A stretch of DNA of 64,000 nt from Okamejei kenojei (Eukaryota), in assembly GCA_035221665.1 (NCBI GenBank), contig CM069156.1, forward strand, positions 17,360,001-17,424,000. Reading direction: 5' to 3'. The position numbers and the translations under genes are program-made. Under the pieces are notes generated by a model, which ran no database searches, had not been told where the DNA came from, and was given only the letters and a program-made list of their open reading frames with translations. Shown here piece by piece: positions 6,001 to 61,551 of this stretch (position 1 is its first letter; the number at the start of each line of letters is the position of its first letter).

Positions 6001-7959
6001 CCAGATCTACGGCATCCAGCGTTTTTCAGTAATTTCAAATACTGATTCTGTTGCCCTTTTTCTAATCATCAGGAGCCACAAGAGACTTCTTCACGTACCA
6101 TTACCATCCTATTTTCCTTTATGCTGTGACTATCTTGGTCATTCAACCTTTCCCCTCTCATCTTATCATGTATTTTCTTTAATCCTCTCCTTCTCCTTTG
6201 CAACTAAAACACTTTCCAATCTGAAACGTTGACCGTTTTCTCTCTCTCCACTTATGCTGATGGGCCTGCTAAGGATTTCCAATTTGTTTTCATGCCAGTT
6301 CCTTTGCCCAAATTGTAAAGCCACCAGGAGGTCAGAGGTAGGCCACTGTTTGAACATTGATAGAGCAACTTAACTCCCTCCAATTCTAGCCTTTCTATGT
6401 TAGTAGGCTATCCAGTTTACCACCCGGGTGAAATTTACCCAACTGAATGTTTGCTGAAAAGTAAACCATGCCCAAGCTGAATATCCTCTTGAATTCTTAA
6501 ATGGCAAACAAGATTAGGTCAAACCATTCCCTTTCCCATCTGTATGGTGAAGACGATTACACACAGCAGAGATTGAACTTGGGTCAGTCCTACTCTGTGC
6601 AATATTGGAACTGTTCTCTCTAAATCCCTTTTGCACTGACGGCAGATGCAGCTGGAAACATGTTTGTGAACAAACAGTGAGCAAAAAAAACAAGCTGCCT
6701 GGAACATTTACCAATTAGTAAATGATACTGTGGAGTCTAAGAACAATGTCTCTCATAGATGTGATTCTTCTTCAGGAAGGCTGGAATTGGAGGGTTAAAT
6801 TCCTCTGTCACTCTTCAGCGACTGGCCTCCTCGTGACCTGCTGGTGGCTTTACAATGTGGCCAAAGGAACATTGCAATTATACGGTCCCAAAACCAGCAC
6901 CACAAGGCACCCGCATGCTGACAAAACAATAAGCTTGAGCTTTCCAGCGATGACAACATCTGGCATTTGTTCGAAATCAATTTTGGATGCAAGGCATTCC
7001 TGCTGTCTATATCTCATATGTTCAACACAGCAGGAACAGCACGAGTGGAACAGGAAATTCAGTGGTAACAAAAGCAATCCAAAAATGCTTGCTTCAATAT
7101 CAGTCCAATAAATCACATACCTCGGTCACCGTGAATTTCCTGGTTCTCAGGATGTTGCATCCTCATTGCAATTTCTTTGTTTGGGTCAAATTAGTTCACT
7201 ACACCTTTTCCCACTACAACATAAAATCCTGCTTGGTAATTTATAATCAGTGTATAATTTTTTCTTCTTACTTTATCTCTATTCACTGGCCCAGAAGCCA
7301 GTGGTCATTAAGTCAGTCATACAGCATGGAAGCAAGGCCCTTTGACCCACCTGATCCATGTCGACTAAGATGCCTCATCTACGCTCGCCCCACATGTCCA
7401 CATTTGGCCCATATACCTTTAAACCTTTCCTACCACGAATAGTTTAAGTGAATATACAATTTTTACTGCACTGCCATACTTCATGCCTGTCTCAGCTAAT
7501 ATGTGATGGAAACATGGCTGTTGCCTTAAGACCTGACCATTCCAATTTACTCCGAGATATCTCCCATGTTTTTTCAGCAAGGCGATACTAGAATGAACAT
7601 TTTCATTTCAAAATTATTTAGTATCCTCATTCTTTGCCTTACAATTGTCTGAAATATCTGCATTCATGCTATTCTGGATTCTCGCATGACAGTGAATTCG
7701 CCTTCACTGCCAAGGTACAGAGTAATGAAATTCTGTTCCACTTCAATATTTCCTTCTTCTAGATATACCTCAAAATCACTTTTGTGTCCAATATAAAATC
7801 TGATGCAGTGACTGGAAGGGATAAAGTATGCCCTTATGCTTCATAGCATCACCCCGTTCTATAATTTCATCCACATATCTTTCATATGCCAAAAGAAGAA
7901 TGTACTCTCTAGACAGGAGCCACTGCAAGGTAAAAAGGCATAAAGGATGCAGATCAAAA

Positions 7960-8120: not shown

Positions 8121-8869
8121 ATGTAGCCTTTAGGTGTAACATTAGATATCGCTCCTTTGCCCAAAGGGTATGTTAGCCAATTGCCCCTTCTCATCTTCCA
8201 CTGTGCATTCAAGTCAGCAAAGAGAAATGATAAAATCTAGACTGAACTAGCAGCGAAGATGCAGTGATTTAAATTCCTGTCTCTCCATTTAATATTTAAA
8301 AAATGTCAGCATTTTAACAACCAAAAAAATTGACATCCACTAATAACACTGAGATAGCATGCCCCAGATGATAAAACAGCAAAATGAAATGAAATTAATG
8401 CATTTAAAATTGCAGCATGCTGTCAATTCAAATTACATGTCATTTTGAAAATTATTAGACAATTCTGTCAGCTGAAAGTCAGACTTACTTAGCCAAACCA
8501 CTACCGTCACCACCGTGTAAATTAAAATGACTAGAATGCATAAGTAATTTGCACTTTTCCTCTCCATTTCCAGAAGGCACTGCTCCTCACTTGATATTGT
8601 TTCTTAGCCACAGGCTGCCCGCCGAGCAACAGAAAGTGAATGGCGAACCTTCAGTTTCTACATGTCCAACACAACGCCTCAACACCCGACAGTATCCATT
8701 GAAAAAGTTTGATTCATTTAAAAAGGTTGGGAAATCTGATGTTGCACATGCAACATCCCTAAAAATGAATTCTCAAAGGCAGCTTTTGATGTCAAGATTA
8801 AAAACCTGCCAACTTCATCACCCAAAGTCTATGACACTTCTTTTCAAGAAGTCACAGCAGTCAGAAGTA

Positions 8870-9110
8870 ACGTAACAGCTAGTGTTCCTACTGCACAGCT
8901 CCAGCGACACAGAAATAATCCTGATGTCAGGTGTTGTGAGCATGATTTCCCACTGGGAGCTCCAGTATGGTCCCAGATCTTAAACAGGTAAGTTAATTGT
9001 AAATTGCCCCAGAGTAGATGTGCTGAAGGGGAATTGGTGGGATGGGGAGGATTTGAGAATATAAGAGACATATAAGAGAATATGTTACAAATAATGGGAC
9101 TGACAAGGAT
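8870..9110 (+). mobile_element. V-SINE (HE1-like), degenerate
   Basis: TGTAAATTGCCCC..GTAG tail shared with 41565-41600. Confidence 0.55.
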
Positions 9111-9119
9111 GATGGGCAA

Positions 9120-9538
9120 ACAACTTCCCTCTCTGCATCACGTTAAGCTTCGGTGGAGGCCCTGGTCCCGTCTCTCTCTCTCGCTCACACACCCATCTCC
9201 CCTGCTCTCCCTCTGCGGCTATGGCCGTCCCGTCTACCCATCCCCCAGGTGAATGGCTGCGACGGTAAGTCTCCTCCACCGCTGCCGCGGTAACTCACCC
9301 TCACGACCCTGAGGGTGAGTTTGGGGTAGGGGAGGAGGAGAGGGGAAAGAAGAGGGAGAGTGAAGAGGAGGGGGAGGGAGTGATGGGAGATGAGGTGAAA
9401 TGAGCCGCGCCTGCGCAGTTGGGGGCTATGCATGAGTGGTGGAATATTGCGTTGGGTGAACGGTAGCGTCGGGAGAACAGGTGAGTGGTGGGATGTTGCG
9501 TTGGGGAGGCATACCCAGCGGGTTTGCACTTAGTTTAG
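9120..9538 (+). mobile_element. Non-autonomous Helitron fragment (same family as 52899-54266)
   Basis: 9151-9300 aligns to 53228-53362 and 9410-9538 aligns to 54140-54266; degenerate hairpin then TTAG|T. Confidence 0.75.
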
Positions 9539-10106
9539 TCTTCCAAATAAATGCCATGAAATTCCTGTGCATTTGGCACAGACTATTGCGCCAATAGGGA
9601 TAAATACACATCAGTGGGAGGATGCATGTGAAACATAAACACTGGCAAAAATCAGATGGCCAGAATCACTCATTTTAATTCATGTGAATTTGGAGTAATC
9701 TGAGATGAGATTAGGCTAAAAGCACTCCAATTAGTTTGCTCCTAGACTGATAAGGCACGGACCGGGAGGAAGTATATGGAAGCAGCACTCCTGAATATCA
9801 CATACTAAACTGCAACGTGGTGTGCGTGTCAGCTTAGAACAGGCTCAATTGCAACTCCTCCCATGGTCAAAGAGTCAGCCCAGACTCTGACAATACAATG
9901 TCAGGAGGCTTTTGGTGTTGGAATATACACCACAAAAGTCACATAGAAATTAATGTCTCCTGAATTAAAAAAAAAAAAAATCCATGTTCAGACAGGAAGC
10001 CAAAAACAAAATTTAACCTGTACTTCAACTTCCTTCAATAAGAAGTGTTACCCTGGAGAGGGAATAAAGAGAAAATGTCAGGCTGTGCAAATCATAAGCA
10101 TGCCTA

Positions 10107-11075
10107 ATATGCAAGTTCGGTATTCCGAAAAACGCAAGGAATCATAGGATTTGTCAAAGGTCATTCACCACAAAGAAAAAGCGAACGAAGCGCTGGCCGT
10201 ATAAATTCTTATCTTTATTCATAATTTATGTGTAAAAATATATTTAATCTGAGAACGGGGTGTAACAGCAAGAGGGAGTGAGACAGGGAAGAGACTGGAC
10301 CAGCGGAGAGACATTCTCGGCAGCCGCTCGCACTCAGACCAGCACTTCATCCGCAGCCAGGATCGAACCCGGGTCCACAACACCGCAAGTGCTGCCGAAC
10401 CGCCACTGGATATGTGTGTGTGCGTGCGTGTGTGTGTGTCCCCACCCGAGTGTCCCATCCCTGCCCGGGGGGCAGCCAGAGACATCCAGGGAGACCCCGG
10501 ACTGACGGGACACCAGCGGCCCCAGGCCCACAACCAGCGCAGAGAAGAAGCTCCAACTCCAGCCCAACCCCGCTCCAACTCCTGAGGAACCTGCCCCCAA
10601 CAGGACGGGACCCACCAGCCACACCCCCCGCCCCACCCAGCGGCCGCCAGACAACACCCTCCCCCCCGGAAGTCGAGCACCAGCCATCAACGGGATACAC
10701 GCAAAGCACTGCAGCAACTCAGCTGGACAGGCAGCATCCCCGGAGAAAAGGAATGGGTGACGTTTCGGGTAGAGACCCTTCCCCAGAGAAGTTGCCTGAC
10801 CCACCGAACCACCGCAGCACCCTATTTGGATCCCCACCGATGACCGGCGCTCGACGCCCACCGGCACCAAGGGGGCCAACCGACAGCCACTGGACAAGGA
10901 GAGAGGCGCAGCAGACGGTCCCGGCCCGTCGGGGAATGGCCCGCTCGGGAGCCGGAGCAGAGCCGAGCTGGAGCCAGAGCCCCCCTCCCCGCGCCGGCTG
11001 CAAGTCTGGGCCGCCGTCACCCCGCTAGCCGGATAGGAACGGGACACCCAGGAGGGGACGGGTTGACAGTGACAG
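10107..11075. mobile_element. GC-rich non-autonomous interspersed repeat (possibly Helitron/Helentron-like), copy 1
   Basis: Inverted homology to 60945-61551 over ~600 bp; terminal hairpin TTCGG-TATT-CCGAA; internal tRNA-like B-box; short Penelope-type insert at ~10715-10810. Confidence 0.7.
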
Positions 11076-11779
11076 TTAAAACACCTGACAGTTAAAAAAC
11101 CTCACAGAAGGTTGAGCAAATGTCACCAGCCACAACCACATTATCTTTTTACCTTGGGTTGACCACACAAATTGATCAAAGCCACTCCGAACCATCTGTT
11201 AACAATTTTGTTTGAGCAAGTTTAAAGAATCAAATTTATTGTGGATGTGGTACAACAGAATTGCACATAATTAACAATTATTTAGGAATACCATACAAGA
11301 TCACAAGGATGCCTGGTTTGGGGAAATTCAGTAACACAAGTCCAGCATATTTATTTTATGGAATTGGAGTTAAAATGCCTTACAGGAGTTCTACTCTGCA
11401 TCGTAAGATCCTGCAGTAGAAGACGTGGTAGTGCATGCTTTAAGCTCTGGGTGGAGAAAACTGAAAACCATTCCAGATATCACTACACAGATTTCTCTCC
11501 TTCAGTGGACACAACACGACTCTGATCCAGAGGGTGATTTGCACCGTTGCATGGTGGATACATCTGTGCCACTGATTTTTTTGTTCCTTCAGCTGAAACC
11601 TGACCAGATATTGTCAGATATCAGACCAGATATCGTCTGAAGAAGGGTTTCGATCCGAAACGTTGCCTATTTCTTTCGCTCCATAGATGCTGCCTCACCC
11701 GCTGAGTTTCTCCAGCATTTTTGTCTACCTTCGATTTTTAGCATCTGCAGTTCCTTCTTAAACAGATATTGTCAGCGAT

Positions 11780-45689: not shown

Positions 45690-46875
45690 TAGCTATCTTC
45701 CATTTTAAGCAAGCGTACTCCTTCGGCAAGCTTCGTGCACTATGTCCAAAGTCAGAAAATATTCTAAAGTAACGAGACCAAGGCGGGGGGGGGGAGCCGG
45801 GCGAGTGAGTAGGCTGCGAAGAGCGGAGATAGAACCGGCTTAACTCTCTGGAAACCGACATCTGGGCGGGCGGGCGGGGGAGGGAGGGGCGGGGCTTCAC
45901 GAGCTGCACGGGCAGCGAGAAAACTTCCCTCGCTCGAGGCGTCGCTCGCTCACAGCCAGAGACAACCAGCTTGCTTCTGAATCCTCTCCGTCTTCCCCGC
46001 CGGATCTCAGAACATGGCGGCGGCTCTTATCATCGCGCAGGGCACGCGACGAGAAGGTGGACCTGGCGGCCATTACACCCTCTGGGAAGCCCGCTACAGG
46101 ATCTTTGGTCCGCAGCACAGCGGGAGGCGAAAAAATGACTGAATGGGGGGGGGGGGGGGGGAATGAGGAGGGTGGTGGAAAGTGTGCCTGCGTGTTGACA
46201 GCATCTGCTTTAATCGAGAGCGAGGGGGCGGCTGCGAGCAAGGGCATTGTGACGTCCACAGCTGTCGCGAGCAAGGGCATTGTGACGTCCGCAGCTGGGC
46301 AGCAGTTTGATTTTTAAAAAACAGTAAATTTTGTGAACAATTTTATTGAAAATGTGGAGAGATAAATGACCAAATTTAATGAGATGATTTCTAAAATCAT
46401 AAGGTAAATCGCTACTGAAATCTGTAATAATTTGCCCGTTTTGGCATCTGGTTTTCGAGGAAATACGTTTCAAAGACAAAATGACACACACACACAGTTT
46501 TAAAAGTATACTAGACCAAGTGCAGACCCGTTGGGTCTGTTCCCCCAACGCGCGTTTGCGGGGGGGGGGGGGGGGGGTGTGGGGCGGCATGTGGCGTCAC
46601 ACACACTAACCACCCCCACATTAACTACCCCCTTGATATTATATTATTATTAATTAGATCCTTTTACCCCATAACCGCTCTAGCCCCTGACGCATAGCCC
46701 CCAACTCGCAGGCGTGTCTAGAGAGGGAGAGGGGGGTTAGAGAGTGAGGGCAGAGAGAGAGTGGGGAGGGACAGAGAGAGAGGGGCAGAGGGAGGTGGAG
46801 GGGAGGAGGAGAGGATGGGTGGATGAGGGGGGGAGGGGGGGGAGAAGGGGAGAGGGAGATGGGGAGAGAGTGGAA
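45690..46875 (-). mobile_element. Two Helitron-family segments joined head-to-tail at 46510/46511
   Basis: Minus strand reads ...CAGACCCAACGGGTCTGCACTTGGTCTAG|TATACTTTTAAAACTGTGTGTG...; (GT)n and repeated GACGTCACAATG follow; CpG-rich interior. Outer boundaries uncertain. Confidence 0.65.
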
Positions 46876-50189: not shown

Positions 50190-51130
50190 GTTAAGAGTGT
50201 TTGTATCTTCGCCAAAAGGCTGTGGCAGCGCTGAAATTCTCACAGAATCTTACTCACATTTTTCCCGTCGTCACGATAATCAGGTTCCCTTCAGATTTGA
50301 TGCTATATTTCACAAGTTATTGATGATTACATTTTTTAAAAAAGCAAAAAATGGCTTCTGAGAGAGTCTTCCAGCAGCTTCCAGTGATGATGTCACAATG
50401 CCATCTCACAGTCCACCAATCACAATGGGCTCTCATTTACACAAGCTGCCGAGTGTGACAATTACATCACAATGGGACATTGCCAACAGTAACGGCAGCA
50501 ACAGCTTGAAGGAGAGGTTGCCAATGGTAATGACAGCAGAAGCTTGGAGGAGAATGCTGCGCGCCACCATCTTCAGACCGACTGGGCCTCACAAGGGGGG
50601 AGGAGTGTGTGACGGGGGTGGGGTGGTGTATGACGGGGTGAGGGGTCAAGTTAAAAGTCGACTTTATTCATTGACTCCCTCACAGATTAATTGGCGTTTT
50701 ACAACTTTCCTCGAACGCTGCCCGCAACCTCTGCAAAAATCTTAACGCTACCGTGTAAGTCTCCATGTCAAAGGCAGCTATTGTTTTTCAAAGTTGGCTT
50801 TTTTAAAACTTTAAATATCAATAACTTTTGTAAGATTTCGCAAATTTTACTCCCAGCCCACTCCCTTAAATTTCATGTCATTGATATTTAAAGTTTTAAA
50901 AAGCCCAGTTTGAGAAGCATAACTGTCACTCTGCTTTGAGTTTTCTGGCAGCCTCCAGTGATGATTTCACAATGTCATCTCACAGTCCACCAATCACAAT
51001 GGGATCATTTACATAAGCTGCAGAGTCATTGTTGCCAACGGTATCGGCAGCCAAGAATTTTACCCTCAGCTTACTCCCCAGAGCCCACTCCCCACAGCCT
51101 ACTCCCAAAGTCCACTCCCCACAGAATTTT
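50190..51130. mobile_element. Helitron-like non-autonomous element with internal direct and inverted repeats
   Basis: GATGTCACAATG motifs like the other Helitrons; ~90-bp direct repeat (50377-50455 / 50948-51025); inverted repeat 50773-50927. Termini not seen. Confidence 0.45.
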
Positions 51131-52662
51131 GAGAGGCAGAATTTTGGCCATGCCCTTCTCTGGCATTGGTGGCCCAATCGTTGAGCAGCAAAAATGTAAT
51201 TGTCTCTTGTATGTAGGATAGTGCTCGTGTATGGGAATCTCCGGTCGGCGCGGACTCGGTGGGCCGAATGGCCTGTTTCCGAGCTCACGAAAGTATACAC
51301 AGCAACAAAAGAGCATGCATGACACACAGTTAAACTCCAACAATCAATGGACACCACTATTACAGACAATCGTTGACTCAGCAACAAATGGATAACACAT
51401 AGTCATTCAGTCAGCCCCAAGTGATCATATTGGGGATTAGCAATGCATACTTAATACATATCTAAGTTTCAGATCATTAACTTTTATACTGATATAATGA
51501 AGGCAATATATTTAGTTGGAAAGAGTGGAAAAATATACAAAGATCATGAGTGAGTCAAATAAATTTGCGTGGTGAATTTATTAACATTACATTTTTTTTC
51601 AAACTGACATTAGTATTTGACCCCACTGCTGCAGAACCCATGAAACCGGCCCACAATGTGCACACATGCCCTTCTTGCTTTCTACATGAGAACTGTAGTT
51701 CTTTTGAAATTCTACCAACTGCTTACCTTCAGAAATGAAATAATTATTCCTGAGCGATCACAAAACACCCCTTAGAATCATTTATCTATTTGCTATAAGA
51801 CCAGTAGGCTAAGCCTTTTACCAAAGATCAATTTATGAGACCGAGTTTGTTGTTGAATTCCTTGTATGCAGTTGCCCCAACCTCGCAGCAACAAACTACA
51901 GTAACAGATCTGGACAATGGAATGCGCCACACGAAACACCTCGTCAATCCATCGCCCAAGGCTGCTCATTTTAATCTGAATCCATGTGCTTTGTGCACAA
52001 GAACCAGCTTTTCTTCCTGTCTAATAAGCAATTACTGTAATACCACTATCCTTTCTAAAGCAAATAAGCTTGTATAAACCACATGGCAGCAGAATCCCAG
52101 TAACAAATAAGTCTTCACACAGACACACATACCAGCTGTATTTAGAGAAGTACTGTGATAACAAGCAGTAACAAGGAATGACAAGGGCTATTTCAACGAT
52201 TCCCAAAGGGGGTGTACCACTCAACTCAATGAACATTGGCAATGGACCAAAATGTCCATACACAGCAATTTGTTAATTTGTTCATCACATATTCATGAGC
52301 CCTATGATGGTCAACGTATCTCGCAGCAACTGAAGTCATGCAGACCACCAAACTCAATCAAGTGAGCTTGATAGGAAATTCCTAGAAATCTGAAATAAAA
52401 CAGAAAATGGTGGAAATACTCAGCAAGTCAGGCATTATTTGTGTAGGCAGAGAAAAACAGAATTTAAAAAGTCCTATGCACCATAAACTATCAAATGAGT
52501 TGATAATGATTTCCTCTGCCGCACCTTAGATGTTGCCTGACTTTTGCAGTACAGAACTCCGCAGGAGATCCTTCTTCCCTGTGGCTATCAAACTGTACAA
52601 CTGGATCAGTGCACTGTGGATGCCTTGATTGTAATCCTGTATAGTCTTTTCATTGACTGGAT

Positions 52663-52898
52663 TGTTAAAGTTCGTTTTACTTTCCACAGACAACCAGACA
52701 CAGATCAAGTAAAGCAAGACTTCTTTATTCGCTAGCGCGAGTGGGCAGCAGCTTTAGGGATGATAGATTACATTCCCACAGCTCCTCGTGGCCCCACTCA
52801 CCAAAACAAACGACAGACATCGTAATTATACTATTATCTTATCAGTACATTCCAGTAGCCATAACCATATATGGTAAAACAAAAAGCTCTACAGCCTA
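52663..52898 (-). repeat. 3' LTR remnant (R/U5 side); U3 part lost at the Helitron junction
   Basis: By eye about 15 substitutions plus one 9-nt indel versus the 5' LTR over ~220 nt; ends ...TTTAACA next to the GGAT TSD. Confidence 0.9.
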
Positions 52899-53554
52899 CA
52901 CGATAGCGCTACGAATTTTCGCCACCTTACTCACCAATCCTGTGCTGCAAGTGCAACAAGTTTTGTTCCGATCGATGGTATATTTTAACATTTATTAAGA
53001 TTTAAAACTCTTAAAAACCGCACATTCGCAGAATGGTCTCTTCTCCTGTCAGTCTGTGCCACGCAGATTGGTCTCCTCTCCTGTCAATCAACGCCACAGC
53101 CAGTACAGCAATGCCCCTTCCTGCACTGCGGCCACTCCCGCCTCACTCACAAACTCCTCTCTCTCCTCCTCACAGTAACTTATCCACCGTCTCCCCCACC
53201 ACCGGCGGCGGCCGGGAGGGAGGGTTCAGTGGAGGCCCTGGTCCGGTCTCTCTCTCACCCTTCTCCCCGCCCGCCCTCTGCGGCAATGGCAGTCCCATCT
53301 ACCCATCCCCCTGGTGAATGGCTGCGACCATCTGTCTCCTCCGCCACCGCGGTAACTCATCCACCAGATCTACTCCACCAGCTCATCGAAACTCGTGGTG
53401 CCCACCGTGACGAACACCGACTCCATTCCCCCCCACGGCAGCAACAAGCAGGCAGGCAGGGACGGGCCAAGCGGCAGCAGCAGGCGGTCGGGGACGTGCC
53501 GAGTGGGCAGAGTTAAGGAGGGAGGGAGAGACAGGTTGCTGGGTGGCTGAGCAG

Positions 53555-53590
<36 letters not shown>

Positions 53591-54266
53591 AACTGGTCCA
53601 ATCGTCAAGTCAACGGGATCTAAACCACAGCTAACAATGAATGACCTTTGGAGGAAGGAACTGCAGATACTGCTTTTTATGGAGGGAGGGAGTGACTGAG
53701 GGTAGGGGAAATGAGAGGGAGGGAGAGGTGAGGGGAGATTGGGGGAGGGGAGGAGGAGAGGGGAAAGATCCTGCGGAGGTGAGGAGGGAGAGTGAGGGGT
53801 TTGAGGGAGAGGAAGGGGTAGGGAGGGAGAGAGGAGAGAAAGTGGGGGGAGGTGACGAGGGAGAGTGATGGAGGAGGGAGAATGGAGGGAAAGGAGGGGG
53901 GTGGAGGAGGTAGGGAGTGGGGAATAGAGGGAGAGGAGGGCAATGGGGGGAAGTCAGGAGGGATAGTGGGGGGGGATAGGGGGCTGAGTAGGGGAAAGGA
54001 GAGGGAGGGTGTGGTGAGGGAGGGGTTGGGGAGAGGGAGGAGAGGGCTTAAGAGGGGTTAAGAAGAGGGAGGGTGAAGAAGAAGGGGGAGGGAGTGCTGG
54101 GGATGGAGTGCTGGGGGGATAAGGGGAAATTATCCACGTCTGCGCAGTTGGGGGCTATGCGTGAATGGTGGAATATTGTGTTGGGGGAACGGGTTGCGTG
54201 GGGGAACAGGTGAGTGGTGGAATATTGCATTGTGGAGCAGACCCAACGGGTCTGCAATTAGTCTAG
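52899..54266 (+). mobile_element. Non-autonomous Helitron (5' end deleted) nested in the ERV
   Basis: 3' terminus GCAGACCC-AAC-GGGTCTGC hairpin, short spacer, then CTAG|T (54263-54266); homologous to copies at ~9120-9538 and 46511 onward; contains (CA)n and a purine tract. Confidence 0.8.
53370..53426 (-). pseudogene. ALG13: Captured N-terminal fragment of ALG13 (UDP-GlcNAc transferase subunit) inside the Helitron
   Basis: MESVFVTVGTTSFDELVE* versus the ALG13 N-terminus MKCVFVTVGTTSFDDLI; GC-rich 5'UTR-like sequence upstream (to ~53520). Confidence 0.85.
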
Positions 54267-54373
54267 TTTAATAATAAAAATCAGAGCAATGATTAGCAGA
54301 AGGGTAGAGCCATAATGTATCACAGTACCCCAAAGTCCATCAAACAAATTGTATGGCCACCAGTTCTCACTCT
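54267..54373 (-). pseudogene. env: env TM remnant: Trp-rich membrane-proximal region plus transmembrane helix
   Basis: [35 protein letters not shown], in frame with the THBS2 segment and truncated by the Helitron. Confidence 0.7.
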
Positions 54374-55207
54374 CTTCCTCGACCATCACCCTGATGAAGC
54401 ATGTTTTGGGTCGCTGGATCAGGTGCCACCTGTGGGCGGTATAATCTTTCCAGCCAATATTCTTGGGATCGTGCCATAAAGTTTGCACCTGTCCGAGAGT
54501 GTTGCCAGTGTGCCGGAGAGCATTGTGCAGGTGCTTCCCCCCCCCACCCACTCATGGTGGAGTTAACCACCTTGAGTGAGACGCCAACGTATCCCTGGGC
54601 TTTGAATGGCTTCTCTTTCCAGTAGGTTTGGGTGACCTGTTTCCACATCACCACTTAGAAGCGGCTGCTGGACTGGAAGCCAAAGACAAAGCCGGCGTAG
54701 ATTGCGGTCTGTGTTGACGTAGAAGATGCCACTGAAGTCGATGGCGTTAAACTCATCTAAGCCGAAGCAAGGAGGGTCAGAGTTGGCGGTGTGCATTAAC
54801 TCCCTGCCCTGGCTGCGCACTACCCAGTTAGGATCAATCTGCGTCGTCCCCTTTGGAACTTCCTCAGGTCGGTCTCGCTGATGGCGCTGTTCTCGGGGCG
54901 CACGTCATAGATGTCTTGGATGTTGTCGTTGTCAAAGTCGTCCTTGCAGGTGTTTCTTCTGCCGTCACCATCAACATTGATCTGGTCAGGGTTGGGGACA
55001 AGGCGGCAATTGTCCTTCTCATCAGGAACGCCATCATTGCCATCCTCATCAATGTCCTGATTGTCATCACACTGATCACCCACCAGGTCTGAGTCATTGT
55101 CTTCCTGGTCAGGGTTATGCATAAGTGGACAGTTATCACACATGTCTCCAACCCTATCTGGTCAGTGTTATAAATGTAAGGACAGTTGTCAGCCTCATTC
55201 AGGATGT
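54374..55207 (-). pseudogene. THBS2: Processed (intronless) thrombospondin-2 fragment: type-3 Ca-binding repeats plus most of the C-terminal L-lectin domain
   Basis: [17 protein letters not shown] / [72 protein letters not shown] / [37 protein letters not shown] / [14 protein letters not shown] / [21 protein letters not shown] / [43 protein letters not shown] and GWKDYTA are THBS2- rather than THBS1-type residues. Several frameshifting deletions. Confidence 0.93.
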
Positions 55208-55284
55208 CTTGGTCCAGGAGTTGTTCTCCAAGTCCAGCCCATCTGGGCCAACCCCAGGATAAAAAGGAGGGTCAATAGCCCCAT
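55208..55284 (-). pseudogene. env: Putative env start / signal peptide
   Basis: MGLLTLLFILGLAQMGWTWRTTPGP: hydrophobic signal-like peptide overlapping the pol end in another frame, the usual env start position. Confidence 0.65.
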
Positions 55285-56280
55285 TGTCCTTTCTTGGTTC
55301 TCTGATCCATTTACAGTCCATCAGATATATCCAACAGGGGTGATCCTCAGTCTTCACGGCGGTTGGTGCAGAGATGCCAACCCTAAATTTAGTTCACAGT
55401 AACATTCAACCCATTTGTCCGTAACAAATGGGGGTAAATGCATTTCTCTCAGTAACATACTACTCACTTGGGGTTGTTACCGGCGGCTATGCGCCTGCGC
55501 ACTGGTGCAGATCAGCGGGCTGCCGGCGGGCGGGTGCGGCACGCGCACTTGGCAAGGTTGCCGGCGGGACTGCGCCTGCGCACTGGGTGGGAGTGGGGGG
55601 GAGGCCCGGTGATGGGGCTGCCGCGAGCGGCCGGCTGGCGGCAAGAAACGTCGCCGTGTCGCTGATCGCGCGGGCCGGCACCGCCCGGGCTCTGGGCCGG
55701 GCGTGGCTGCGAGCTGCCGGGCTGGCAAACCGGGGGCACATGGCGCCGGCGTTCACCACGGGAGGAACACCAGCACGGCGGTGTTCCGTAACAACATGTT
55801 TGGCTGCCGGAACACCGTAATATGGTTATTTCGCCGGGACAAAATACGGCGAATCCGGGACACTTGGCACCTCTGTTGGTGGCATAGTAACAGAAAGATG
55901 CAGTTCCCTCCAACACAGTCCCAATTTCGTCCGATCCCAGTACCTTATCAGTACGTAGTCTCCCGATTGTATGGATTCTATGTTATGGGCAACTGGTAGT
56001 GGTTTCGGCGTTTTCAATATCTGTGAATGTAAGACTGGCATGGTTCAAGTTAATTGCTGTGCATACGTACTTAATTCATCGCTTCACAGCTTGTCCTGTT
56101 ATCAGTTCAAAAGGTGTTAACCCTGTCTCTCTAGCTGGGGTAGTTCTGAACCGTCAGAATGGCTGGGAATACCTTAGCCCATTCCTGTCCAGTCTCGGTC
56201 AAGGCTTTACTTAAACTCTTTAGTATCCTGTTCATTCCCTCCACTAATCCAGAACTCTGCGGGTGGTGAGGGATGGAAGA
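55285..56280 (-). pseudogene. pol: Retroviral integrase core/C-terminal remnant, split by a MITE
   Basis: HHPQSSGLVEGMNRILK, TTPARETGLTPFELITG, IQSGDYVLIRYWDRTKLG; removing the MITE restores ...LCWRELHLSVTMPPTAVKTEDHPCWIYLMDCK, resembling the class-I integrase C-terminus. Confidence 0.85.
55369..55875. mobile_element. Non-autonomous DNA transposon (hAT-like MITE) inserted in integrase
   Basis: TIRs CAGAGATGCCAA / TTGGCACCTCTG; subterminal CCGGGAC motifs; TTGGTG duplicated on both flanks; excision restores the integrase frame. GC-rich interior. Confidence 0.8.
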
Positions 56281-57109
56281 TTGCTCTTTACCTACTTTTT
56301 AAAGACAGACCCTTTAAGAATAGATCATATTAAGACAATTTAAAAGTATTCCCAATTGTTCCAATCTATCTCTCCAAATTCACAATTTCATATTGACAAT
56401 CTTTTTCCTGAGATATAGGTATTTCCAATCTCATCTAACACTTTAACCAGGATTCCGCATGGTCAGTGTGGAATCCAGGTCTTGAACTCAATTCAAAAGG
56501 TAAGAAATAGGAAGAAAATAAACTTAAAGCACCAATAAAACAAAACAAACCATATTAACCAGCTGTTAAAAGTTGAGAAGACGGAGAATAAACAGTTAAT
56601 TTCCACATAGATAGCGAACGTATTTGCAAAGAACAAAGGAAAAGAAAACAACTGTGTGCGGTTCATCCCCACACAACTGCAACTTCTTAGAGACACTACC
56701 TCTTAAAACACGAGACTCTACAAAGATTTATCTCGTAAAAGAGCAACCTCATTCAATGGCATCCTATTTCATCTGATTAATTCAACATTCACCCAGAACC
56801 TGTTCCACAAACAAGTAACAATCTTTAAACTTACTCACTCCGTACCCTTTTATCCCTGTGACATTCACTCACAAATTTCCACACCTCATGCAATATGCTG
56901 AATCTCAGATATTCACACACTTTATTAAAATAATAACATTCAAGGAAATCATGCAAACTTAACACTTTGACTTACCCAAATACACTCATACTTTGTTCAT
57001 AAATACAGCACATACTGAAGAATGGTCTCGACCCAAAACATCCCTTGTATTCCACTCGACTCTCCCCCCACTGCTGCTGCTGCTCCCCCCTCTTATAAAA
57101 GCTTCTAAG

Positions 57110-58049
57110 TGTAAGCTTTCCCTTCCCTCCTTACCAGCATGCGTAAGGGGGTGTGAAGAATGTAAAAGAATGGGCAGGAAAGCATCAGGTACCCAAACTT
57201 GTCCGAGAGGGGTAAGCCAGAGGCCCGTCAAAGAATCAACGGCGCAGCCCACTCATTTCCAAAAATCGCGATGCGAGGCAGAGGCGTCCCCCTGTATTAA
57301 GTTTACATCACCCGTGTCTGGAAGTGCCGTTCTGTCTACAAGAATCTTTGGTTCTGTGGGGATCAATGTGCAGAATTCGCAAGCTGCCAAGCGAGCATTC
57401 CTTTGAGGGTTCAAGAAGGAACTGCAGATGCTAGAAAATCGACTGAAGATGGGTTTTGGCCTGAAACGTTGCCTATTTCCTTCGCTCCATAGATGCTGCC
57501 GCACCCGCAGAGTTTCTCCAGAAATTTTGTCTACATTCCCTTGAGAGACGTTTGTCGCGGCTACTCATGGGCATTGCACTTAATAATGGCCAGGAGGACT
57601 GGGAGGGCTTAGTCTGGTGCTGTAGCCAGAGCTGTTTTTAAGTTGCGAAAGTCTTCTTCTTGTTGGAATGAGAGAGTGAATTGCTACGATGCCTTGGCAA
57701 AAGCACAGGCGACAGTAGTTTAGTGTATCCACTGCCAGCAGAAATTAACCAAGCCCAGAAAAGCCCTCATCTGCTTAGGGGTGGTCGGGCTGGTGTGGAT
57801 CACAAAGGGAACCACCCGGGTCTTATGTAGCACTGAGCAATAAACCAAAGATTTTACTTGCGTCTGCCCCTGAACTACCTTTCGTTTGGGTAGAATGTAA
57901 CCCCAGCAGTGGAAGGCTTTTAGTAGCTCATCGGTGTCCTCAGCATTCTTCTAATATCTGTACTTGCAAACAGAAGGTCATCAGCACACTGTATCACCGC
58001 TGAGCCGTGGGACAGCCTCAGGGTCTGAACTTGTTTCAAGACTGTTTTA
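57110..58049 (-). pseudogene. pol: Retroviral pol remnant: RT, RNase H end, integrase HHCC start (interrupted by a short retroelement at ~57409-57534)
   Basis: SAVIQCADDLLFAS (YxDD motif), PTTPKQMRAFLGLVNFCWQWI (RT thumb), ILLHSSHPLTHAGKEG (integrase Zn-finger His pair); frameshifts and large deletions. Confidence 0.85.
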
Positions 58050-58688
58050 AACTGTGCACTGTTGGTTTCGGTTAAAGTTCTCGTCTCCTCCATATGTGCG
58101 ATACACTGTTGTAATTCACTCCCAGAAATCATGCGCTGATTCCTTGGGTAAGGCTATGCATTCAATTACTTTGTCCATATCAATAGGTCGTTTCAGGCAC
58201 TGAGTTAGCGCAGTGAGCATAGCCTCGATCCTTGCGGGGTTGTCAGGGTATAATGCCTTGAGAGCCACCCAATCAGCATCATGATTTTTCCCTTTTCAGT
58301 CTTCTTTGATTTATATCCTGGCTCTGGTGTTCTACATTGTTTAACTCTCTCACTCTGGATTCAATTACTGCTCCTCCATCCTCTTCTGCCTCAGCACTTT
58401 CCCTTTTTTATCTCATCGTCCTTTTCCGTTTCCGAGTCGCTATCAGTATCATTTTCTTCTGGGGGTGCCCTTCCCGGTAGGGGTGCCGGTGATCCTCCCT
58501 ACTGGATCTTAGTGGGGGAGCTACTGCTGCTAGGGACTGGTGGCTATTGGGGAGGTTGTCTACACTATTCCCAAATTAGTTCCTCATTCTCCTTGAATTT
58601 GTTCCTTATCCCCCTCTTTTGTAAACAGGATCGCCATCCCAGGTCCCCGGGGATATTTTGCTAAGGTTTCCGTTTTCGCATTACCAAT
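58050..58688 (-). pseudogene. gag: Retroviral gag remnant (internally deleted)
   Basis: Degenerate start (ATT)GGTAAT = (M)GNAKTET, myristoylation-like; Pro/acidic stretch; major-homology-region-like IALPKESAHDFWE*ITTVYRTYGG at ~58085-58160. Confidence 0.75.
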
Positions 58689-59387
58689 TGTTTATATTCT
58701 CTTTTTTTGATAATCTTTTTGCCTGATCAGATTTCTCCGTTTTCTCGGATCCAAATAACACATATGCTGTACCGGAGCTCCACCATTTAATACAGACCGC
58801 ACACGGACTGTTCTAGCCAATCGAAAATATTCCACAGATCTCTGACCTGCTCAAGATTTACGACAGACCACACATGGTTTGCTCTAACCAATTAACCAGG
58901 GCTTGTCCCATTCTTAGCCCTCTAATTTATGATAAACCACACATGGTCTGCTCTAGCCAATTAATAACAGGCCGTACGTAGTCTGCAATCCCTATCGACA
59001 TGGGCCATTCCCACAGACTGCACTTTCCACAGACTGCACTTAATAATATCCTGACCAATCGAAAATATCCTGACCAAACGAAAATCTCTTAATCAAACAA
59101 AAATATCCAAACAAAAATATCCAAACAAAACTATCCAAACTATCCAAACGAAATATCCAAACGAAAATGACCAAACGAACCTAACCAATCGAAAATCTCT
59201 TACCTTACGTTGCCCGTGTTAAAGGATCCCGGCAGGGAACTATATCAACCTCAGACAAAGGACTACAGTGTTCCCGGGAACTTGTTCGGGAGTTCAGATT
59301 CAAAGGATCCGATAGTGCACTTTTATTCGCTCAAGGTCCCGGTGAGACTGTAGCCTCTTACTCTGTCGTCAGAGATTCCCAAGCGAG

Positions 59388-59405
59388 ATCCTGACAACTA
59401 CGCCA
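59388..59405 (-). promoter_or_regulatory. Primer-binding site complementary to tRNA-Ser 3' end
   Basis: Minus TGGCGTAGTTGTCAGGAT matches 16/18 to the complement of vertebrate tRNA-Ser 3' end ATCCTGCCGACTACGCCA, immediately inside the 5' LTR. Confidence 0.85.
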
Positions 59406-59854
59406 AAGTTGATTTTACCTTCCACAGACAACCAGACACAAATCAAGACTTCTTTATTCACTAGCGGGAGTGGGCGGCAGCTTGAGGGATGATAGATTAC
59501 ATTCCCACATCTCTTCGTGGCCCCACTCACCGAAACAAAGGACAGACATCATAATTATACTATTATCTTATCAGTACATTCCAGTGGCCATGACCATATA
59601 TGGTAAAACTAAAAGCTCTGCAGCCTATTAGGATATGAGAAAAGCTATGCCATATTAGGCTTATCCAGTAAAGAATTATTACTGATCTCTACAGTTTCGC
59701 GCCATTCTCTGCAGTTTGGCACAGCCTGGTTCTTTTAACCTTGGGCAAAAGCATGCTTTCTACAAGCAAGTTTTCATTTTATATATTACTTGAAAACAAC
59801 AGCAGAGTCTCCATTTTGTAACCTACAGCAGTTTTGATTGCTTTCATTCTTTCA
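59406..59854 (-). repeat. 5' LTR of the ERV (~450 bp)
   Basis: Begins TGAAAGA on minus; AATAAA near 59453-59458; 59406-59627 aligns to 52667-52898; directly followed by the PBS. Confidence 0.9.
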
Positions 59855-60234
59855 GGATAGCACACAACAAAAAGGTTTTTCACTGTACCTCGGTACACAA
59901 TAAACTAAACTAAGTAACTAACTTGTCCCAAAACTACCCTCACCTCATTATTTTTCAGCTCCTCTCAAAGCACCAACCGTCTATTTCTCTCCACAACTGC
60001 TGCCTGATCTGCTGAATTCCTCCTGCAGTTTGTTTTTAGCTCCAGGTTTCAGTAATTACAGTCTAGTGCACCTTCAACAAACTCTTCCAATTGGCATCAC
60101 TTCAATATCACATTAAAAACAGGGAAAATGGTCAAATGTTTTGCAATTTAATTAAAAAAATGATTCCTACATTATTGAAAGCATTACATTTTTACAGTTG
60201 TACAGTCAGACAGGCCTAAATCCATGCTAAGCAC

Positions 60235-60944: not shown

Positions 60945-61551
60945 GGTGAGTGAGCACTTTGTGTGTATCCCTGTTGTTGGCTGGTGCTCAGCTCTCGCCG
61001 GCTGCTAGGTGGGGTGGGAGGTGCGGCTGGCAGTCCCCGGCCGGGAGCGGGTTCCTCGGGAGTTGGAGCAGGTTTGGGTTGGAGTTGGTACTTCTTCTCC
61101 GCACTGGCTGTGGACCTGGGGCTGCCGCTGCTCCGGGCCGGTGTCCCGTCGGTCCGGGGTTGCCCCGGACGTCTCCGGCCGCCCCTCGGGCGGGAATGGG
61201 ACACTCGAGGGGTGACGGGGTGGTCCAGTGGCGGTTCAGCAGCGCTTGTAGCGCCGGGGACCCGGGTTCAATCCTGGTTGCGGATGAGGCGTGGGTCTGT
61301 GGGCACGCGCTCCCGTCTCCCACTCGCATCCGCCCCCTCTCTCTCGCTGTTACACCCCGCTCTCTTGCTACCTGACACCACCCCCCCATTCATCAGATTA
61401 AATATATTTTTACACATAAATTATGAGTAAAGATAAGAATTTATACACAGTTTCATCAGCTAGCGCTTTGATCACTTTTTCTTTATGGTGAATGACCTTT
61501 GACAAGTCCGATTATTCCCTGTGTTTTTCGGAATACCGAACTCGCTTATTG
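60945..61551. mobile_element. Same repeat family, copy 2, in opposite orientation
   Basis: Reverse complement matches 10113-10715 (e.g. GTTCGGTATTCCGAAAAAC..GTCAAAGGTCATTCACC..TATAAATTCTTATCTTTA). Confidence 0.7.

Follow-up and report, generated by a model that had tools for sequence, protein, structure and literature searches.

A non-autonomous Helitron-like element at positions 52897 to 54266 of the window (the whole 64,000-nucleotide stretch of skate DNA analyzed here) carries the start of the ALG13 coding sequence in antisense orientation, and this ALG13 piece is present in many copies. The whole account that we favor, to which we give a probability of about 0.8, is that an ancestral skate non-autonomous Helitron captured the 5' end of ALG13 as DNA and spread it, and that the copies subsequently decayed.

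Identity of the ALG13 piece

On the minus strand an ATG at 53426 opens 18 codons (53426-53373) that end at a TAG (53372-53370). The 18 residues are identical (18/18) to ALG13 of Leucoraja erinacea (P0129, XP_055500161.1) and agree at 15 to 16 of 18 positions with five other chondrichthyan ALG13 entries. By tblastn the piece scored 38.1 bits, while the highest score among 100 shuffled windows was 26.6. When the frame was used as query with the stop read as X, one protein among 8 candidates was returned, a shark ALG13, and further protein searches led to ALG13 of other cartilaginous fish. The 21-residue peptide was not detected in PDB and Pfam searches because it is too short. The ALG13 identity of the 18-codon peptide is thus real, and the parts of the captured piece are as follows.

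53427-53520, minus strand: GC- and CpG-rich stretch 5' of the ATG, probably ALG13 5' UTR or promoter, judged from composition and depth
53370-53426, minus strand: ALG13 codons 1 to 18, then TAG at codon 19 (Glu in skate ALG13)
53366-53369, minus strand: ALG13 codon 20 (Ile) and the first base of codon 21, where coding homology ends and a contig of run X21 departs (at 53366)
53360-53365, minus strand: by alignment, 6 nt where 21 are expected (the final 20 nt of exon 1 plus the donor G); donor lost
53091-53359, minus strand: probable start of ALG13 intron 1, of which 53225-53359 is common to the 9-kb copy and the rest, to about 53091, is placed by a depth step and contig joints

The original prediction had the Helitron holding the first coding exon of ALG13. 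This stands for codons 1 to 18 and fails for the exon as a whole: the 53-kb copy has codons 1 to 20 only, with Glu19 changed to a stop, and the exon end and splice donor are gone. The GC-rich sequence upstream of the ATG, also part of that prediction, was confirmed, with a GC content of 0.67 and a CpG observed/expected ratio of 0.70 in 53201-53500; 5 CpGs are retained over 61 nt. The upstream extensions of two ray ALG13 models (Pristis, and Mobula by eye) did not match the upstream frame of the window.

A second ALG13 exon was not found in the 64-kb window, where the next match to a 164-aa shark protein query had an E value of 1.9 and the next matches to the 1130-aa skate ALG13 were proline-rich only, with E values of at least 0.049. 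In metagenome contigs a 29-base exon pattern had 0 matches. Selection on the 18 codons finds no support: the chance of zero amino-acid change is about 0.07 at 6.5% divergence (0.02-0.13 over the range tried), which is not significant, and the piece was chosen because it was recognizable.

The Helitron-like carrier and its copies

The carrier and its relatives in the window were placed by their 3' ends and by contigs.

52897-54266, plus strand: non-autonomous Helitron-like element, 5'-truncated, with the ALG13 piece antisense inside it; placed by its 3' end, left limit from contigs
52897-53090, plus strand: high-copy family block 5' of the captured piece, with summed depth about 450-2600x that of reference contigs in 52939-53092
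54237-54266, plus strand: Helitron-type 3' end with a perfect 8-bp stem around a 3-nt loop (19 nt in all), then 11 nt that finish in CTAG, with T next; from a hairpin test and a contig edge
46511-46540, minus strand: third 3' end of the Helitron-like family, agreeing with the 53-kb end at 27/30 positions; no ALG13 piece observed

The hairpin at 54237-54255 is a perfect 19-nt palindrome 11 nt from the end (z -3.47; 1 of 200 shuffles was as good), and the terminal CTAG at 54263-54266 provides the CTRR 3' terminus that is a feature of canonical Helitrons (PMC4224331). This geometry is the same as that of the Helraiser 3' end, in which a 19-bp palindrome lies 11 nt upstream of the CTAG end (PMC4778049). 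The last 30 nt are common to three elements of the window (ends at 9538, 46511 and 54266) at 24 to 27 of 30 positions, where at least 80% identity defines a family, and a T stands directly after all three ends. The left flank of the 53-kb copy is lost. No 5' TC end, left target base or complete empty site was found for this copy, which stops at 52897, and no RepHel partner either; among the matches listed 100 contigs of run X1 and 106 of run X6 extend left of 52897 into sequence that is absent from the window; the Helitron 5' end is deleted in the 53-kb copy. Among the 25 longest of 46 inverted pairs none links the element ends as a terminal inverted repeat, in a copy whose 5' end is missing.

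Since the Helitron-type 3' end is on the plus strand and the ALG13 piece on the minus strand, the piece is antisense to the Helitron, as predicted. It lies between the high-copy 5' block and the 3' end, the true 5' end being missing. In 5 contigs (3 of X6 and 2 of X8, hence 2 of 4 runs, among the matches listed) position 53090 is joined directly to 53765, with the join marked 'between: not known', which suggests that family members without the interior exist. Together with a step in depth at about 53090, these joints suggest outer limits of about 53091-53764 for the captured block.

To gauge copy number we used contig depth. A word search found 20 runs from 7 organism labels that have part of 53100-53560, none with half of the words, and 4 of the 24 listed runs were aligned to the window at 85% likeness, 3 of them being DNA runs (X1, X6 and X8). 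The search named no RNA dataset with the sequence, which carries no information on expression. Relative to reference contigs, depth over 53324-53400 and 53401-53477 was 184x and 105x in X1, 128x and 76x in X6, and 146x and 81x in X8. It stayed high to 53477 and fell to 8-20x in 53478-53554, and over the Helitron 3' end it reached 2900-7700x in the 3 DNA runs. Summed contig depth is not copy number, as short overlapping contigs inflate the figure, and the reference contigs (29.3, 14.8 and 12.8) were chosen by us, that of X6 lying in LTR sequence. Depth being only a proxy, we read these values roughly as a copy number of the ALG13 piece between the tens and the low hundreds. The piece is multi-copy and a single-copy origin is excluded. 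Its multi-copy presence under three organism labels makes it probable that the capture is older than their split.

Capture of ALG13 by a Helitron, the core of the original prediction, thus agrees with the Helitron-type 3' end, the multi-copy depth and the lack of other ALG13 exons nearby. The findings that would have spoken against it were not obtained: neither single-copy sequence with the remaining exons close by, given 76-184x depth and no further exon in 64 kb, nor a lack of nucleotide similarity to host ALG13. The fragment was amplified with the element: two copies in the window have ALG13 sequence and the same 3' end, and depth over the piece is high in all 3 DNA runs. Among the matches listed, no contig of the aligned runs connects the ALG13 piece with a Helitron end at a different locus.

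We also considered that the ALG13-derived piece was spread mainly by another carrier, an LTR element or a segmental duplication, the Helitron-like end being a mere neighbor. The 53-kb copy does lie inside a multi-copy LTR element, and one X21 contig (record 9) that spans the LTR-Helitron junction at 52663-52965 with about 90% identity could be a second locus. However, the 9-kb copy, which likewise combines ALG13 sequence with this 3' end, shows no LTR-element sequence around it when the window is compared with itself. Moreover, an X1 contig (record 6) of the flanking LTR-element repeat has its edge exactly at 54267, with 13 unaligned letters only (among the matches listed), as a paralogue of the LTR interior without the Helitron would. 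We consider spread by another carrier very unlikely and retain the Helitron as the vehicle.

Exon boundary, sister copy and probable capture as DNA

Among the matches listed, one X21 contig aligns with the ALG13 piece up to 53366 and then continues for at least 255 letters. Its first 30 letters past 53366 encode, in the ALG13 frame, residues 22-30, which are 9/9 identical to P0129 (by eye); this contig, from a run marked 'RNA? (probably DNA)', looks like spliced host ALG13. Four of 214 ALG13 database proteins have a foreign N-terminus, joined at residues 24-28 (at 27-28 in 3 cases), in agreement with an exon 1 that ends after codon 27. A literature search on the human ALG13 exon 1 boundary returned nothing relevant.

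The missing exon end was located in a second member of the family.

9149-9538, plus strand: shorter sister copy with a decayed 3' end (TTAG, then T); last 30 nt 25/30 identical to the 53-kb copy
9293-9309, minus strand: end of ALG13 exon 1 (11 nt, 9309-9299), then the donor GTGAGT with its G at 9298; ranked first among 208 GTRAG sites in the window

In the 9-kb copy the 11 nt at 9309-9299 lie between a block matching 53729-53768 and a block matching 53225-53359. Compared with the host-type end of exon 1 they are identical at 9 of 11 positions, the final 7 exactly, and GTGAGT follows directly; the same place in the 53-kb copy has 6 nt versus 21 and no GT. The original prediction that the copy at 9120-9538 lacks ALG13 therefore holds for the exon body, which is absent, and has to be amended for the exon end and donor, which are kept. 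The body shared by the two copies differs at 15 of 135 aligned bases (about 11-12% divergence). As the exon end and donor stand directly before it in the 9-kb copy, this GC-rich body is probably ALG13 intron 1. Most likely the 9-kb copy has lost the exon body and the captured block exceeds the exon; both copies are probably deletion derivatives of an element in which the upstream region, exon 1 and the start of the intron had been captured as DNA. The exon-end argument stands on 11 nt and one X21 contig.

Alternatively, only an exon piece (about 53363-53728) was gained by the lineage of the 53-kb copy, the 9-kb copy being ancestral and without ALG13, and the exon-end match is due to chance. 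The 9-kb copy indeed lacks 53363-53728 while matching the 53-kb copy on either side, and the match is short. Against chance, the match of 9/11 with the last 7 exact precedes a consensus donor at a place preset by homology to the 53-kb copy. With both strands counted, the window has a single occurrence of the 7-mer followed by GT, and of 208 donor-like sites this one matches best. We therefore consider this alternative very unlikely, and loss from a larger captured block the better reading.

The donor-plus-intron structure also bears on whether the piece came from DNA or from mRNA: the exon end and donor in the 9-kb copy point to capture as DNA, not via mRNA. That the 53-kb copy is a processed, mRNA-derived insertion, or else the genuine first exon of an ALG13 gene whose remaining exons lie over 53 kb away, would suit the perfect amino-acid identity and the CpG-rich setting with its retained CpGs. 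Against both forms speak the stop at codon 19, the lost donor, the different continuation of the host-type contig, the multi-copy depth and the location within nested repeats; an mRNA origin is further opposed by the lack of exon-2 sequence after the piece and by the donor and intron-like sequence kept in the sister copy. We regard this as exceedingly improbable and prefer capture as DNA by a Helitron.

On that reading, an ancestral non-autonomous skate Helitron would have taken up the ALG13 5' end as DNA, in antisense. The captured stretch, no larger than about 53091-53764, would have run from upstream sequence through the first coding exon (81 nt) and its splice donor into intron 1. By rolling-circle copying, with RepHel from another source, the subfamily may have reached tens or low hundreds of copies before these decayed. 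The 53-kb copy would have lost the exon end and donor and gained the stop at codon 19, and the 9-kb copy would have lost the upstream part and the exon body while keeping the exon end and donor. Rolling-circle transposition can bypass the 3' hairpin and so carry flanking DNA (PMC4778049), and because family sequence lies on both sides of the ALG13 piece the likeliest route of capture would be such a bypass of the 3' end that stopped at another member of the family. The same anatomy would result if an element had gained the piece by gap repair. A comparable composite is HelibatN539/KCNQ5, in which a second family member ends the run and host DNA is enclosed by family sequence (PMC4224331); the skate ALG13 piece likewise has family sequence on both sides. 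For HelibatN539 the progenitor ends were found at the parental gene (PMC4224331), whereas the skate case is known from the window and contigs.

The closest likeness is to Myotis HelibatN3, whose copies, about a thousand in number, contain the promoter, 5' UTR and first exon of NUBPL together with the splice donor and part of intron 1; in bats, gene 5' ends are captured more often than other gene parts and are also the most highly amplified (PMC4224331). Like HelibatN3, the skate element is non-autonomous, has amplified a gene 5' end, and ends in CTAG with a 19-bp palindrome 11 nt upstream (PMC4224331, PMC4778049). It differs in the gene, ALG13, in the lineage, and in copy number, about 10^2 versus 10^3 by a rough reading of depth; moreover both skate copies are broken, and it is for HelibatN3 that chimeric transcripts have been demonstrated (PMC4224331). 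ALG13 had 0 matches in 4 supplementary files of the bat capture catalogue, the search covering the supplement other than file 1 (PMC4224331). In Xenopus laevis, Heli1Xen1 has 19 captured coding fragments in 64 insertions, 17 of the 19 from gene 5' ends (PMC12001565), and so is likewise a vertebrate Helitron with a coding fragment from a gene 5' end. The Heli1Xen1 family is young with autonomous members (PMC12001565), whereas the skate family is older and decayed, as the divergence between its two copies indicates, and no autonomous member of it was seen. The open literature, searched apart from subscription papers and repeat databases, yielded no paper on Helitron gene capture in skates or on Helitrons with ALG13, and the word 'rolling' is absent from the main text of the little skate genome paper.

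These findings extend Helitron capture of gene 5' ends, seen in bats and Xenopus, to cartilaginous fish. The ALG13-bearing family offers a testable case of 5'-end bias and, if intact copies exist, of promoter dispersal, and in skates such Helitron-borne copies can lead ALG13 annotation and read mapping astray. The 53-kb copy itself is most likely inert: with a stop, no donor and no 5' end it cannot yield ALG13, nor, the left end being essential for movement in Helraiser (PMC4778049), would it be expected to move. A bolder proposal is that skates have tens to hundreds of cassettes of ALG13 promoter, exon 1 and donor, some of them intact and acting as portable CpG-island promoters and exon traps, in the manner of HelibatN3 in bats, or as sources of antisense or small RNAs acting on ALG13. 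We find this unlikely; if it were true, the 18 unchanged codons and the kept CpGs would reflect an unmethylated or selected state and not just youth.

Nesting in an LTR element and other features of the window

The 53-kb copy lies within a larger element that holds a second gene-derived piece.

52663-59854, minus strand: decayed LTR retroelement hosting the Helitron, with a 4-bp target duplication (52659-52662 and 59855-59858); from LTR halves, the duplication and the resumed flank repeat
54372-55158, minus strand: intronless, decayed thrombospondin-2-like piece in the LTR element; Pfam TSP_3 and TSP_C, best match THBS2

The remaining 3' LTR is 52663-52898 only, 88.8% identical over 232 columns to 59405-59627, and the repeat that the LTR element split resumes at 59859, as the loose ends at 52662 predict. 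A solo-LTR reading of 52663-52900 was abandoned in view of the second LTR that pairs with it, the target duplication and the resumption of the flank. The 53-kb Helitron copy would have inserted into this LTR element, and its 5' end and half of the LTR would have gone afterwards; since both are missing, one deletion probably removed them. The interior is presumably gag/pol, judging by its motifs, and none of its 6 read-through frames gave a Pfam family at an E value of 0.01.

The thrombospondin-2-like piece packs about 300 residues of the solved THBS2 chain, matched at 279-413 and 522-580, into about 0.8 kb, leaving no room for the introns that the THBS2 gene has in this span. Depth over 54325-54478 is 35-123x that of reference contigs, so that by depth this piece is also multi-copy. 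A second capture by another mechanism close to the first, which the original prediction had put forward, is therefore present, and its proximity is one of nesting: the two captures adjoin because the Helitron inserted into an LTR element holding the THBS2 piece, and no link between them is needed.

Several further features of the LTR element were observed. A PBS-like site lies at about 59386-59405, the THBS2-like piece lies where env would be, and short tandem arrays with periods of 14-36 occur at 59011-59196, just inside the PBS. By eye, 55371-55877 is a GC-rich, MITE-like insert with short inverted ends, and its base composition is CpG-rich. The X21 contig across the LTR-Helitron junction has a different outer flank.

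Elsewhere in the window, a strong CpG island at 45700-46300 adjoins the third Helitron-type end (46511). It contains a GC box and, at 46014, a well-placed ATG, and may be either a genuine promoter or a further captured 5' end. For the 42-codon frame at 46014-46139 there were 5 weak matches (E 2e-5 to 7e-4; TPR, WD40 and other unrelated proteins), which we take as chance. A GC-rich repeat is present in two copies in opposite orientation, 10106-11100 and 60999-61550, that are 73% alike. Minus-strand translations of 7600-7910 and 8530-8900 are coding-like by eye and may be exons or decayed transposase. Upstream of the LTR element, a 91-bp direct repeat (88%) at 50364-50454 and 50938-51026 bounds a unit of about 660 bp.
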